DNA from: Escherichia phage vB_EcoP_WFI101126
Direction: 5' to 3' (one strand)
Sequence record: NC_070991.1
DNA: 64,000 bases
Position numbers and translations under genes: made by a program
The notes under the pieces: generated by a model
Seen by the model: the letters and a program-made list of their open reading frames with translations, nothing else
Told to the model about the DNA's origin: nothing
The model's database searches: none
In this document: positions 8,995-46,200 of the stretch, piece after piece
How the letters are laid out: each line of letters begins with the position of its first letter
How positions within the stretch are numbered: position 1 is the stretch's first letter

Positions 8995-9019
8995 ACCCTG
9001 CCTTCGGGCGGGGTTTTTT
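8995..9019 (+). terminator. intrinsic terminator: 8-bp stem ACCCTGCC/GGCGGGGT, TTCG loop, T6
   Basis: Read directly, 7 nt after stop at 8988. Confidence 0.7.
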
Positions 9020-9047
9020 CGTTTTAAGACCTATACAAGCTAGTGTG

Positions 9048-9057
9048 TAATGTATAT
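9048..9057 (+). promoter_or_regulatory. TAATGTATAT motif, about 33 nt upstream of ATG 9090
   Basis: One of at least six near-identical copies upstream of gene starts on both strands. Confidence 0.4.
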
Positions 9058-23855: not shown

Positions 23856-24474
23856 ACAAGCTGCTCAGAGTTTTAACTTCAACCCGAAAGAAGTCCGTCT
23901 TGCTCAGAATACAGCTGAAGGTACGGTTGCTAAGCAGTGGGCAGAGAAAGGTGGCTTGTTTAACCAGTCCAATAAAGACTTGGACTTGGCTGATAAAGCT
24001 GTTAAGGACAAAGATTATCAGACGGCCCGTTCTGCTTACATGCAGGCTATCATGAACTCCGCAAGGGCTGAAATCGGTGCTACTCGTTCTCTTACCGAAG
24101 AAGACTTGGGACACTTTGCAGAAGACCCATCAATCTTCGTTCGTGTTGGTAACAAGTTTGCACTTAAATCTGGATGGCGTCCTACTGATTCTGCTCTTGC
24201 TTATGCTCGTAAGCAGGCTAACGTTGGTCACACCTCTGCAATGAAAGGTGTTGCTGATGCTAAGAGAGCTACGATTGAAGCTTATATCGGTTCTGGTATG
24301 GATAAGAAGAGAGCTACTGCATTGGTCAACCGTGCAATCCCTTCTGGTGGTTTCTATGACCCTCTAGGTGTTTTCTCTGAACAAGCGGAGGAAGCAGTTG
24401 GTGGTGCAGCAACCAATCCTAAGCTTAATGGTGCTTTATCGGCTGTAGAAGATACTAGCTGGTTCACGCAATAA
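23764..24474 (+). CDS. C-terminal portion of the split internal virion protein (track ORF, TTG start; first ~47 codons probably not native)
   Basis: Frame continues from second repeat copy to 24474; would join upstream ORF if one copy were removed. Confidence 0.45.
   Translation: MDIVIKLRLNVLNKLLRVLTSTRKKSVLRAEQAAQSFNFNPKEVRLAQNTAEGTVAKQWAEKGGLFNQSNKDLDLADKAVKDKDYQTARSAYMQAIMNSARAEIGATRSLTEEDLGHFAEDPSIFVRVGNKFALKSGWRPTDSALAYARKQANVGHTSAMKGVADAKRATIEAYIGSGMDKKRATALVNRAIPSGGFYDPLGVFSEQAEEAVGGAATNPKLNGALSAVEDTSWFTQ
23794..23903 (+). repeat. perfect 55-bp tandem duplication (23794-23848 and 23849-23903)
   Basis: Read directly; the two units are identical base for base. Confidence 0.85.
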
Positions 24475-24481
24475 GACCTAA

Positions 24482-24516
24482 GTCCTGCCTTCTATAATGT
24501 ATATAGGGGGTAGGAC
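24482..24516 (+). promoter_or_regulatory. 8-bp stem hairpin (GTCCTGCC/GGTAGGAC) whose loop carries TAATGTATAT (24495-24504); T-rich tail follows
   Basis: Read directly; about 38 nt upstream of ATG 24542. Confidence 0.4.
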
Positions 24517-31481: not shown

Positions 31482-32765
<1,284 letters not shown>

Positions 32766-33058
32766 AATGCATCTCTTTATAAACAGTTTCCGTGTTCTTC
32801 TTCCAGTTAGATAAACCGGTAAGAACTCTCTGAGCAACTTCATCAGCTGCCCTACTTCTTTCAATCTCTAACTCTTGTTGATGCTTTTCTTTATCCAGAT
32901 TGTTACTGTCTGTTCTGTACTCATTAAACTTCATGCCACCAAAGAATACAAGAGCTGAAAAGATAACAAATCCTAGATTATCACTTAAAGTGCTTTGCAT
33001 ATTGACTCCAACGAAAAAAGCCACCCGGAGGTGGCTAAGCTATAACAAGGAGAGTTAT

Positions 33059-33472
33059 TTATATGAATTTCTGCATACCTTTGATACGAGGGTTATCATC
33101 ACCAACTCTCGATTTACAGTAAGCGATAAAAGATTCAGTATTGAGGTTATCCTTTTGAGAACCCCACTGGAGATTGTCTGCTCTATTGTTGCTCGGATTA
33201 TCATCCAGATGCATAACAACAGCGTTAGGAAAAGGTTTCTCACCATGAAAAATCTCACACACTAAGATATGAATCCTTTTCTTAAACTTTCTTTTCCTGT
33301 TTACAAACACCATTCTTCCATCTTTCTCTCTATATCCGCTATATGGTTTTCCTACGAAAAGCCTAACTCCACCATTATTCGTTATGGCTGTGAAAGGCTT
33401 AATCTTAACTCTACCAAAAGATGATACGGAAAGGAAATCATAATAGGGGTGATCTTTCCAGACTTCTTCCAC
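33059..33472 (-). CDS. HNH homing endonuclease (NUMOD4-like N-terminus)
   Basis: HLDDNPSNNRADNLQWGSQKDNLN matches HNH_3 homing endonuclease core. Confidence 0.65.
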   Translation of the reverse strand: MEEVWKDHPYYDFLSVSSFGRVKIKPFTAITNNGGVRLFVGKPYSGYREKDGRMVFVNRKRKFKKRIHILVCEIFHGEKPFPNAVVMHLDDNPSNNRADNLQWGSQKDNLNTESFIAYCKSRVGDDNPRIKGMQKFI

Positions 33473-33481
33473 TATCTATCC

Positions 33482-34228
33482 TCAAAATGGGCTATCGTTG
33501 TCGTCTTCGTAAGTAGAGGCAGGCTCTTTATCAATCGTAGGGATTGAAGGAGTAGCTTCTTTCTGCTCTGTTTCAGAAGCACGAGTAATTTCACGACCAG
33601 CCAGAGGCATGTTCTTAGCGTCATTAGCTTGAGTAAGCAGGTTGCGCTGGAACGGGAACATCAGTTGATAAGATGCTACGTTCTCATCGGTTTCAGCATA
33701 CGGTTCGAAGAATACCAGAGGACTACGAGCTTCACCAACTGCTGCACGATATTTGGTTGGGATTGGAGAAATGGTCTTGATGGAGTTTTTAACTTCACCA
33801 GCTTTGTTAGTATAAGAGTTAACCAGAATGTTAACAGGCTGGCCTAACAGAACATCCTTGAACCAAGACAGATCACCTTTCAGTGCTTGAATACTTGGGT
33901 CAATCATCTTGCAAAGATCAAGAATACCAGAGTTCTTAGCTCGTGGGTTTACATCATAGCTCTTGAACTGGCAAGCCGGACGTGGTTCTAATGCCTTACC
34001 ATCGGAATCTTTACCAGTAGCATCAACACCAATCAGCTCGAAAGCTAAATCCATACGGAAAGCTGGATTCTTAGGAGTTACTGCTTTGGTCTTCGGGTCA
34101 ATCCAAGGGTCACGATTGTGAACACCCAAACCTACTACACGAACGATACGTGCTTCGTACTCACCATCAGGGATTACATCGTAGTTGGATTTACGGGAAG
34201 CAGTTGCGATAGTTGGAATCATAGACAT
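33482..34228 (-). CDS. single-stranded DNA-binding protein
   Basis: 248 aa; acidic C-terminal tail ending DDNDSPF, typical of phage SSBs. Confidence 0.6.
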   Translation of the reverse strand: MSMIPTIATASRKSNYDVIPDGEYEARIVRVVGLGVHNRDPWIDPKTKAVTPKNPAFRMDLAFELIGVDATGKDSDGKALEPRPACQFKSYDVNPRAKNSGILDLCKMIDPSIQALKGDLSWFKDVLLGQPVNILVNSYTNKAGEVKNSIKTISPIPTKYRAAVGEARSPLVFFEPYAETDENVASYQLMFPFQRNLLTQANDAKNMPLAGREITRASETEQKEATPSIPTIDKEPASTYEDDNDSPF

Positions 34229-34279
34229 ATTTTAATTTCCTTATTTAATTTGAAAGATTGTTGCTCTCTTTGAGCGGTT

Positions 34280-34296
34280 ATGTATAGTATACATTA
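34280..34296 (-). promoter_or_regulatory. palindrome ATGTATAGTATACAT containing TAATGTATAC on the minus strand (34296-34287), about 60 nt upstream of the SSB gene
   Basis: Read directly. Confidence 0.4.
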
Positions 34297-34359
34297 CGCT
34301 TATACCGATAAGAGTACTATATAATATAAGTATCTTTGGTAGTAGATATAACACACTAG

Positions 34360-34369
34360 TAATGTATAT
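34360..34369 (+). promoter_or_regulatory. plus-strand TAATGTATAT copy in the 416-bp intergenic region
   Basis: Read directly; no plus-strand gene nearby. Confidence 0.3.
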
Positions 34370-34464
34370 ATTGTATAGCTGATAAAGTTATTGCAGGCTT
34401 GTATATTGGGCAATTCACAGAATCCCTTGCAAGTACCGAAGGGCAGGAGCCACCTGCGAGATAA

Positions 34465-34530
34465 AAATAGAGAATTAAGGAATCCTTGATTTAGGTTGTA
34501 GGGACTCCTAGGGACTTTGATTCTCTATTT
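34465..34530. repeat. 11-bp inverted repeat (AAATAGAGAAT / ATTCTCTATTT) enclosing 44 nt that include a direct repeat TAGGGACT x2
   Basis: Read directly; no clean U-tail on either strand. Confidence 0.5.
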
Positions 34531-34774
34531 AAAAGAATATTAATTACTTATTACCTAAATAATTAACTAACTTACTTAAACCAAATTCAAGAATAATAGA
34601 TAAAAAGATTATTCCTAAGAAAGCTAAAAAGTAAAGGATATAAGTTACCATTCAAGTAAACCTTTAAAGTTAGTTTGTTCTACTATCCTCTGATAACGAA
34701 GATTAGAATCAGCTTGTTTCTTTAACATCTCATTATATTGATCTCTGATAGAGTCTTTATATACTACAGGTTCT

Positions 34775-35278
34775 TTAAATAATGAGATCTTGTTCTTTTC
34801 TTCTTTCATCAAAGACCTTCCTAATCTCTTGCAGAGAAACAGCTTTATAGTTAATTTGCTCCATTGATGTACAGAAATATCTCCAATCATCAATTACATG
34901 GTTATGAGTATGAGCATAAATATTAAACTTCCCTCTCATCTCGTCAGTGTGAATAGGAATATGAGTTACCCAAAACTCTTTATATTTATAATCACCAGAG
35001 ATTCTACGGAATACTTTCATCATATCGGGGAGAAGTTCTAACCTGTCATGGTTCCCCAAGACCAGATGCTTCTCTCCTTTTACTTCAGCGATGATATCAA
35101 GGGCATACTTTTCAAACACCCAATCACCGGTAAAGAAGATTTTATCACGCTTAGTTACATGATCAAATGCAGCTAGGATTGCTTTGTCATGCTCTTCAAT
35201 GTTTTTAAATTGCTTACGAAAACTACAGATGTTGCGATGACCTAAGTGACCATCTCCTGCAAAATAAACTTCAGCCAT
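34775..35278 (-). CDS. calcineurin-like metallophosphatase
   Basis: GDGHLGH...FTGDW...VLGNHD...HTHNH metallophosphoesterase motifs. Confidence 0.7.
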   Translation of the reverse strand: MAEVYFAGDGHLGHRNICSFRKQFKNIEEHDKAILAAFDHVTKRDKIFFTGDWVFEKYALDIIAEVKGEKHLVLGNHDRLELLPDMMKVFRRISGDYKYKEFWVTHIPIHTDEMRGKFNIYAHTHNHVIDDWRYFCTSMEQINYKAVSLQEIRKVFDERRKEQDLII

Positions 35279-35287
35279 AAAGACCTC

Positions 35288-35503
35288 TTAGATAGTGCAC
35301 CCGTCACAAGTTAAATCACCTAGAAGGGATAGAGAAAGTAATCTGGATTGCTCATCACTGTATAGTTGATCAATCTCTTCTTTAAGTTTTGCCAACTCCA
35401 TGAAATTGATAAGTTGACCATGTTCAAGACAGTCTGTTTTTAGTATAAACAAAACTTCAGCGTCTGTTGAATCTTCACTTGAATATTTATCAATGTATTC
35501 CAT
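35288..35503 (-). CDS. hypothetical acidic protein (71 aa)
   Basis: ORF track. Confidence 0.4.
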   Translation of the reverse strand: MEYIDKYSSEDSTDAEVLFILKTDCLEHGQLINFMELAKLKEEIDQLYSDEQSRLLSLSLLGDLTCDGCTI

Positions 35504-35518
35504 TTTTACTCCTATTAA

Positions 35519-35662
35519 TTATGACCAAGATTTAGCTTTCACTTCGACGTATGTTTTAACTTCACCTTTCAAAACTTCCTGAGAAGCATTTGCACTTTCC
35601 TCAGAGTGATGTACAACGGTGATCTCTTTCTTTCCAATCTTATAAGTGTGAATCCAAATCAT
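35519..35662 (-). CDS. hypothetical small protein (47 aa)
   Basis: Hand-translated; ATGA start/stop overlap with upstream gene; AAGGAAG Shine-Dalgarno. Confidence 0.35.
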   Translation of the reverse strand: MIWIHTYKIGKKEITVVHHSEESANASQEVLKGEVKTYVEVKAKSWS

Positions 35663-35826
35663 ACTTCTTCCTTATATTCCCAATTTCTTTCATAATATCC
35701 AGAGTTATAGTTTAGGGCGCACTTCTCGGCCTCTTCTATGTCGTCAGTGTTTAGGATATTTACCCATCCTCCAACTTCATCAAAACCTTCCTCTACTTCG
35801 TTAAACCATACACTATATTTCTTCAT
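35659..35826 (-). CDS. hypothetical small acidic protein (55 aa; internal start of track ORF)
   Basis: ATG 35826 overlaps stop of upstream small gene (ATGA). Confidence 0.4.
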   Translation of the reverse strand: MKKYSVWFNEVEEGFDEVGGWVNILNTDDIEEAEKCALNYNSGYYERNWEYKEEV

Positions 35827-35999
35827 CGAGAAGTTCTTCCCCAATCTTTTACATAGCATCGACCGTTAACCCACTTCGTCTCTGACTTAAATTCTTGAGA
35901 CAATCTCACTTCACAGTCTTCTCTACTGGCATCCCCTCCGATATCAATCAGATATAGGAATAGAGCTATACCTAAAGCCCAAAGAATTATCTTCTTCAT
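35823..35999 (-). CDS. small protein with N-terminal hydrophobic segment (58 aa)
   Basis: Hand-translated MKKIILWALGIALFLYLIDIGG...; ATGA overlap with upstream gene stop. Confidence 0.4.
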   Translation of the reverse strand: MKKIILWALGIALFLYLIDIGGDASREDCEVRLSQEFKSETKWVNGRCYVKDWGRTSR

Positions 36000-36388
36000 C
36001 GAATCACCAAAGGCTCCTCAGAGTACACAGGAGCGGCTATTTCTACAGGAGGTGCTGCCCTAAGGTCATTAAGTCTTACACCCTTCAGCATCCCATCTAG
36101 GTGGTCCTTTTGGGGGATTCCAACAGGGAAGTCGTCAATCCAGATATCTACAAAGAAACCTAGCTGCCGACATACCTCATCCTTTTGTACACCATTGCAA
36201 AAGATGATAGGAATCTGCAAACACTCTGCATCAATCTTAATATCGTGATTATCATACCCATTAGGCTCTGCAAAGCGATAAGTTACAAAACGTACATCAT
36301 AGCCCTTTTCTTGCATTAAAGCCACCACAGAGCGCCACAGCTTTTTATCTGAGGTGTAAGTGTCATCGTAATCTAAGCCAATATTCAT
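35996..36388 (-). CDS. hypothetical protein (130 aa; track gives TTG start at 36406)
   Basis: ATG 36388 with AAGGA Shine-Dalgarno; TTG start would sit inside the upstream terminator hairpin. Confidence 0.45.
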   Translation of the reverse strand: MNIGLDYDDTYTSDKKLWRSVVALMQEKGYDVRFVTYRFAEPNGYDNHDIKIDAECLQIPIIFCNGVQKDEVCRQLGFFVDIWIDDFPVGIPQKDHLDGMLKGVRLNDLRAAPPVEIAAPVYSEEPLVIR

Positions 36389-36632: not shown

Positions 36633-36788
36633 AGTTCAGCCAGTTCTAAATAATATTGTGCTTCATCAGCACGTCCTTGTTCACTACAGATGGCGCTTTG
36701 ACGATAACACCAATCCGATGGCATCTCTTCCACTTCAATCTCCTTGTTACGAACCAATCAATAAGAATAGTTCATTCGTCTTATTTGT

Positions 36789-40699: not shown

Positions 40700-40709
40700 G
40701 TATACATTA
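40700..40709 (-). promoter_or_regulatory. TAATGTATAC motif, 35 nt upstream of ATG 40664
   Basis: Read directly. Confidence 0.4.
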
Positions 40710-46175: not shown

Positions 46176-46200
46176 TGAGAGTTACCATATCTACTACCAA

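Follow-up and report, generated by a model that had tools for sequence, protein, structure and literature searches.

The 64,000-nucleotide stretch of Escherichia phage vB_EcoP_WFI101126 analyzed here (sequence record NC_070991.1, hereafter the window) contains a 315-bp non-coding gap, 34229-34543, that is probably organized around two divergent promoters for the phage sigma factor gp36, one of which, designated P-right, faces away from every gene and would produce a structured non-coding RNA. The window belongs to a Kuravirus, a phiEco32-like podophage of Escherichia coli. The 2-kb stretch around the gap shares 99.8% identity with Escherichia phage Ptacy1532 and 96-98% with SU10, NJ01, and others, and the gap itself is 97.9% identical to that of phiEco32. 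From ~28.5 kb to the end of the window, all genes are carried on the minus strand. A preliminary description of this DNA had assigned the gap to an early block; by homology, the surrounding genes instead form the middle-gene block of phiEco32-type phages. phiEco32 is the model for how a phage sigma factor and gp79 redirect the host RNA polymerase, and its gp36 promoters are quoted as a set of six, all located before genes: P6, P13, P26, P40, P58, and P68, which precede genes 6, 13, 26, 40, 58, and 68. These promoters are described by a single consensus, tAATGTAtA, with transcription starting 6-8 nt downstream. In the cryo-electron microscopy structure of the gp79-dependent open complex on P68, AATGTA occupies positions -14 to -9, and the C-terminal domain of gp36 touches -37G and the T opposite -34A, the mutation of which abolishes transcription. 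The sigma gene of the window (31861..32505) encodes all of the named DNA-contact residues (E79, H80, Y83, R84, W90, S91, S94, N95, Y186, and R187).

The window contains five exact copies of TAATGTATA, whereas base composition predicts 1.3. Late genes are preceded by two of them on the plus strand (9048 and 24495), and middle genes by two on the minus strand (34296..34288 and 40709..40701); the fifth copy, on the plus strand at 34360-34368, is the only exact one opposite in strand to the local genes. When one mismatch is allowed, the count of TAATGTATA in the window is not above that of shuffled sequences. The fifth copy lies within TAATGTATAT (34360-34369, plus strand), which is present where the preliminary description had placed it, as is every other motif that it listed, and forms the -10-like element of P-right, TAATGTATATA (34360..34370, plus strand). 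With AATGTA (34361-34366) set at -14 to -9, +1 corresponds to A34375, -37 to G34338, and -34 to A34341. The -35 region, GGTAGTAGATAT (34338..34349, plus strand), spans positions -37 to -26, and both of the gp36-contacted bases, -37G and -34A, are found at the spacing seen in P68. The only other exact copy of the GGTAGTAGATAT 12-mer in the 64 kb is located at 46198..46187 on the minus strand, 10 nt upstream of AAATGTATA. This site is P68 itself: it lies in the gap between genes 69 and 68, the downstream gene encodes a protein identical to phi32_68, and both the sequence and the annotation agree with those of phiEco32. The arrangement GGTAGTAGATAT-N10-TAATGTATA in P-right has the same spacing as GGTAGTAGATAT-N10-AAATGTATA in P68. 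The two promoters share a -10-like element of the form (T/A)AATGTATATA, an identical -35 block, TTGGTAGTAGATAT, and a 10-nt spacer, and 24/35 of their positions are identical; the chance of finding the 12-mer at this fixed offset is ~1e-7. The identity of the motif and its spacing are in this way established, and the composite pattern GGTA-N19-AATGTA is found exactly twice in the window (0.2 expected), at P-right and at P68. In contrast to the P68 class, P-right faces against all neighboring genes, has no open reading frame (ORF) downstream, and stands outside the six known promoters. A sense-orientation position upstream of a middle or late gene, which is found for P40 and not for P-right, is a trait that the six known members have in common, and recognition does not require it.

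A comparable picture emerges from an alignment of the gap from 21 related phages (74-100% identity; 97 GenBank relatives exist). All 11 columns of the -10-like element are invariant in 21/21 phages, and 9/12 columns are invariant in the -35 region. The spacer between them (34350-34359) has a length fixed at 10 nt and not one invariant column out of 10, and in the DNA between P40 and P-right, 1/19 columns is invariant. This conservation pattern, which is established, corresponds to the signature of a bipartite promoter because two conserved blocks flank a variable spacer of constant length. The preliminary description had named conservation in relatives as a check and divergent promoters as one reading of two oppositely oriented motif copies. 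Conservation holds in the 21 phages, and the divergent-promoter reading is the one supported: the plus-strand blocks are invariant or nearly so, and the plus-strand copy carries both gp36 recognition blocks and is conserved as a promoter would be. Judged on these features, the rightward element is very likely an active gp36 promoter, and we infer both its activity and its start site at A34375. It appears to be previously undescribed. No mention of P-right, of antisense transcription, or of an origin at this locus was found in the literature, limited to secondary descriptions of the phiEco32 promoters; one bioinformatic promoter study covered only the gene-sense strand of intergenic regions.

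Elsewhere in the window, on the plus strand, TAAGACCTA is found at about -38 to -30 in both gp36 promoters of the late type (9003-9056 and 24450-24503). P68 and P-right instead have a -35 block of the GGTAG type, a difference that may separate a late from a middle class.

The minus-strand copy of the motif (34296..34288) is, on sequence grounds, the counterpart of the already known phiEco32 promoter P40, a middle promoter that depends on gp36 and serves gene 40; P40 has been reported as experimentally detected in phiEco32. The identical element is found in phiEco32 at 36640, before phi32_40; the gap and the gene downstream are the same, the sequence is 97.9% identical, and no material difference is observed. 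All nine columns of this element are invariant in 21/21 phages. P40 retains -34A and has an A at -37 (reading AGTA), and matches GGTA-N19-AATGTA with one mismatch. Placing its AATGTA at -14 to -9 gives a predicted start at A34281, and the resulting gene 40 5' leader (34229..34281, minus strand) runs to the ATG at 34228. Within this leader, GCUC-AAAGA-GAGC forms a small hairpin and AAGGAA (34242..34237) is the Shine-Dalgarno sequence; 75% of its columns are invariant, and positions 34257-34279 are invariant throughout. Such a near-invariant 52-nt leader would suit translational autoregulation of gene 40. The back-to-back starts of P40 and P-right are separated by 94 bp. An insertion of ~120 bp lies between the two promoters in the EcK-vB/ES17 group. 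This insertion, seen in EcK-vB and as the same two-piece match in ES17, myPSH2311, and EcP-vB, has inverted repeats of its own and a partial copy of GGTAGTAGG.

The P40 element overlaps a 15-bp palindrome, ATGTATAGTATACAT (34280-34294), which also covers the start of the P40 transcribed region and is the candidate for the operator that the preliminary description had listed among its readings. The left half of this palindrome is not conserved: an entire clade (MLP3, SU7, ECBP2, and others) reads GGTATACTATATACATTAC instead, with the P40 half kept invariant. The symmetry of ATGTATAGTATACAT is incidental because it is lost in this whole clade, and the operator candidate was rejected.

Downstream of P-right, no conserved plus-strand ORF of at least 20 codons is present, and neither strand of the gap carries any conserved ORF in the 21 phages; this absence is established. 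A 32-codon plus-strand ORF with a TTG start was rejected as coding: a 1-nt indel breaks its frame in the SU7-type variants, which carry allele A of the cassette described below, and allele B replaces it. The predicted transcript instead opens, at +1 A34375, with a hairpin designated H1 (AUAGCU-GAUAA-AGUUAU; 34375..34391, plus strand), which has 6 bp and spans +1 to +17. Across nine haplotypes, 98% of the cells in H1 are paired, versus 21-58% in slid controls. Compensatory changes are observed at two pairs (CG/UA/AU and UA/GC), so covariation in H1 is established, and a third pair changes from GC to GU. Since a G-U pair corresponds to an A-C mismatch on the minus strand, a plus-strand RNA is favored for this hairpin.

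H1 is followed by a variable cassette (34399..34436, plus strand). Allele A forms a hairpin that includes the palindrome CTTGCAAG (34426-34433), and allele B is an unrelated cassette of ~66 nt found in MN05, EcK-vB, ECBP2, and others. When searched against all phages, allele B is present in 12 GenBank records and at this locus only. The cassette gives way to a 94-nt domain (34437..34530, plus strand) that is the best conserved part of the gap, with 89-93% of columns invariant and 93-100% identity where gene 40 DNA is only 82-84% identical. This domain comprises a GCAGG-AGCCA-CCTGC hairpin (34443-34457; arms GCAGG at 34443-34447 and CCTGC at 34453-34457), an A5 run (34463-34467), and a long hairpin, H3 (34465..34530). 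H3 is a 66-nt imperfect hairpin built on an 11-bp inverted repeat (34465-34475 and 34520-34530), which extends to 14 nt with 93% complementarity and encloses two copies of the direct repeat TAGGGACT (34499-34506 and 34509-34516). Taken singly, the inverted repeat and the 15-bp palindrome are each unexceptional in AT-rich DNA. The H3 fold is 4-8 kcal/mol more stable on the plus strand in every variant, and over 34375-34530 the plus strand folds ~10 kcal/mol better than the minus strand. The plus strand of this interval is G-rich (38 G and 26 C), opposite to its neighbors. In Paul, XT18, NC-B, E20-1, TH34, TH43, and ECBP2, both copies of TAGGGACT lose one G together and the spacing of the repeat changes from 10 to 9 bp.

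A structured non-coding RNA had been among the readings given in the preliminary description. Covariation bears this out for the 17-nt 5' hairpin; the rest of the predicted RNA is conserved in sequence with no covariation signal and has no Rfam match. A search of positions 33000-36000 against Rfam 15 (E-value mode) returned nothing in the gap and three weak matches outside it (E 4.8-9.3), all far under gathering scores, and ARAGORN detected no tRNA or tmRNA in the gap. A BLAST comparison of the predicted RNA with E. coli genomes for a host target gave no match.

These observations can be assembled into the following proposal. The gap would be a control region between two middle operons, and its core would be the back-to-back divergent gp36 promoters, at which gp36 would work with the host core RNA polymerase, aided by gp79. 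P40, starting at ~34281, would transcribe gene 40 through the invariant 52-nt leader. P-right, starting at ~34375, would fire in the middle phase and produce a non-coding RNA comprising, in order, H1, the variable cassette, and the 94-nt domain ending in the 66-nt hairpin; we infer a length of ~156 nt for this RNA if it is ended or trimmed there. The RNA would be antisense to the 3' end of the upstream operon and to its terminator-like hairpin. Acting together, convergent transcription and base pairing of the RNA with read-through transcripts at this hairpin would seal the operon boundary, so that gene 40 would have an expression unit to itself, extending from P40 to the terminator at 33036..33019. 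In addition, the P-right RNA could melt the extremely AT-rich DNA that follows it immediately, or act as a primer there. The divergent hub with an orphan P-right that makes a structured RNA is the probable explanation for the region as a whole; a cis-acting antisense or insulating role at the operon boundary is the function that we favor, and it is put forward tentatively.

Short cis-antisense phage RNAs with clear intrinsic terminators are made by the sigma-70 polymerase in lambda (oop) and P22 (sar). By analogy, the predicted RNA would resemble these in having a promoter directed against the flanking genes and a structured RNA that is not translated and overlaps the upstream unit at its 3' end. 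It is unlike oop and sar in that it has no plus-strand terminator, the gene that it overlaps varies between phages, and it has no sequence or Rfam relationship to them. If the proposal is correct, P-right would be a seventh, genus-conserved gp36 promoter, and gp36 would also drive non-coding antisense transcription. P-right carries the full P68 recognition code, yet it faces away from every gene, and it offers a way to distinguish three possible roles of its RNA: insulation of the gene 40 unit, regulation of the upstream operon, and marking of the replication origin of therapeutically used coliphages. A single change at -11G or -37G should silence P-right and leave P40 untouched.

Several results weigh against the proposal. 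No plus-strand 5' end mapped at P-right was found in the secondary phiEco32 literature. A terminator scan detects no intrinsic terminator on the plus strand that would define the 3' end of the RNA. Over 34375-34530, folding gives modest z-scores (plus strand, -1.97; minus strand, -1.56), covariation backs only the 17-nt H1, and the other predicted pairs never vary, which speaks neither for nor against structure. An insulating role does not obviously need the 94-nt domain to be so conserved. Finally, in distant relatives (an SSB-like gene that is 67-70% identical, where SSB denotes single-stranded DNA-binding protein; 7-11; Privateer), a short, unrelated upstream gap without an opposite promoter is observed. 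The P-right arrangement is lineage-specific because these more distant relatives lack the opposite promoter.

Against this background, three other explanations were weighed. An ordinary terminator-promoter junction, in which the upstream operon ends at H3, transcription starts anew at P40, and the plus-strand motif and the symmetries arise by chance in an AT-rich spacer or as an operator palindrome, would draw on the UUUUUAU (34467..34461) that directly follows the H3 stem on the minus strand; on the plus strand, only UUUAAAAG or UUAAAAUC is found there. H3 may indeed terminate or stabilize the upstream operon on the minus strand. It would also draw on the expectation that palindromes of this size occur by chance in AT-rich DNA and on the scans, since a sigma-70 promoter and terminator scan gave counts that, like those of one-mismatch TAATGTATA, are not above shuffles. 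H3 itself, however, was not called by the terminator scan: its 11-bp basal stem has two G-C pairs, its interior is 44 nt, and a G+C-rich short-loop stem is absent. In addition, the SU7 record annotates no terminator in the gap, and none of the four terminators given in the SU10 paper lies there. Chance would further have to account for the near-invariance of both plus-strand blocks around a variable spacer and for the match to P68 at identical spacing, and the palindrome ATGTATAGTATACAT is not conserved. For these reasons, a simple junction is very improbable. Only slightly less improbable is the view that P40 alone matters, with the plus-strand blocks acting as DNA, either as a second docking site for the RNA polymerase-gp36 complex or as a source of supercoiling that boosts or buffers P40, and with the RNA as a functionless by-product. 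The two starts are certainly close, P40 lacks -37G and so may be weaker and in need of help, and most of the RNA is without covariation. The compensatory changes at +1 to +17, however, argue for selection on the 5' end of an RNA, the insertion in the EcK-vB/ES17 group indicates that close spacing of the promoters is not required, and the best conserved part of the gap is the 94-nt domain downstream of P-right.

The preliminary description had also listed a replication origin, and the alternative that deserves the closest attention is that P-right, the 94-nt domain, and the AT-rich tract just past H3 form the origin of phiEco32-like phages, of a T4/ColE1-style R-loop type driven by a phage sigma factor, with the P-right RNA opening or priming the DNA. 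Such arrangements are familiar from the T7 primary origin, which combines phage promoters with an AT-rich region, from T4 oriF and oriG, which combine a middle promoter with an unwinding element and use an R-loop, and from ColE1 RNA II. No duplex in the window is richer in AT or less stable than 34514..34619 (83% AT), which starts ~140 nt past the P-right start and is largely gene 41 coding sequence. The 100-bp duplex from 34514-34520 has a stability of -103 kcal/mol, compared with a window mean of -131.5 (standard deviation 5.9), and the promoter core ranks second in instability across the window. The 60 bp after H3 are 78-85% AT in 21/21 phages, despite belonging to three unrelated sequence classes. 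An orphan middle promoter of the P68 type without a gene behind it, a G-rich non-template strand, and a location among replication genes (SSB-like gene 40, a 5'-3' exonuclease, and DNA polymerase), in a phage whose set of replisome genes resembles that of T7, would all be in keeping with an origin, and a site for a protein or primase would fit a 94-nt domain so strongly conserved in sequence. In likeness to the T7 primary origin (phi1.1A/B) and T4 oriF/oriG, a predicted phage-specific promoter that would be active ahead of replication or as it begins is followed by very AT-rich, easily melted DNA. The locus differs from them in that a small gene makes up most of the tract, which begins ~140 nt past the start of the RNA; moreover, P-right is antisense to an operon, whereas the T7 origin promoters are co-directional with genes. 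The coding of most of the tract for a hydrophobic 35-aa peptide is enough by itself to explain its composition. Cumulative GC skew is monotonic with no inflection at 34.3 kb, a weak test here since skew tracks the direction of transcription. No iterons are present beyond the one two-copy repeat, the G triplets of which are not conserved, the more distant relatives do not have the element, and a covarying 5' hairpin indicates a stable RNA product rather than a transient primer. An origin at this locus is on balance unlikely, and the divergent hub with an orphan promoter and its antisense RNA is preferred.

In 7-11 and Privateer, inspected for an analogous opposite promoter, the gaps are only ~75-100 bp and contain only P48-type elements. 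A protein-guided search of IMG/VR and metagenomes yielded few additional relatives, and a degenerate promoter-pattern scan of IMG/VR was unspecific, with at least 120 chance matches. In three IMG/VR relatives (L009-L011; ~2350-2500), the gene 40 homologue is 67-70% identical, and the upstream gap contains GGTAC-N17-TAATGGATA, followed by a conserved structured leader. This motif suggests a related sigma factor that has a G for T at -10 and follows the same -37G/-34A rule.

The product of gene 40 (33482..34228, minus strand), a homologue of phi32_40, is SSB-like, and one record annotates it as a single-stranded DNA-binding protein. It has no sequence match in Pfam or the PDB and belongs to a PHROG family of unknown function. 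Its acidic tail and terminal Phe (...EDDNDSPF) are like the tails of bacterial and T7 SSB proteins. Just past the HNH endonuclease ORF (33059..33472) that follows gene 40, a canonical intrinsic terminator is observed at 33019-33036 on the minus strand (AGCCACC-TCCG-GGTGGCT, then a T run); gene 40 and the HNH insert therefore form a short transcription unit that extends from P40 to this terminator. The HNH insert is absent from several of the relatives examined.

On the other side of the gap, gene 41 (34544..34651, minus strand), the homologue of phi32_41, is a hydrophobic 35-aa accessory ORF that is annotated in relatives and matches PHROG 24970 (E 2.7e-24). It is kept as a full-length ATG ORF with conservative substitutions in 11/21 phages and has a GTG start in PAS59; it is truncated in FH3 and EcoN5, absent in eight phages, and replaced in LAMP. 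Gene 41 evolves like a small membrane peptide. The gap had been described as a 416-bp non-coding region (34229-34644); its non-coding character holds for the 315 bp of 34229-34543, and the remainder lies inside gene 41. The annotation is corrected accordingly: a small gene accounts for ~100 bp of the presumed gap, and the palindrome does not count as an operator. Even at this reduced size, the gap is the largest real gap of the minus-strand block, as had been proposed, because the only larger annotated one (55734-56154, minus strand) turns out to be coding. Past an in-frame TAG (56038..56036), the frame AAA ATT TGT GGC ATC leads into C-G-I-V-L-A-G-G, with which a class-II glutamine amidotransferase begins at its N-terminus (Pfam GATase_6, E 1e-14). 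This GlmS-like gene probably starts at the non-canonical ATT just before the catalytic Cys, which places its annotated start too far downstream.

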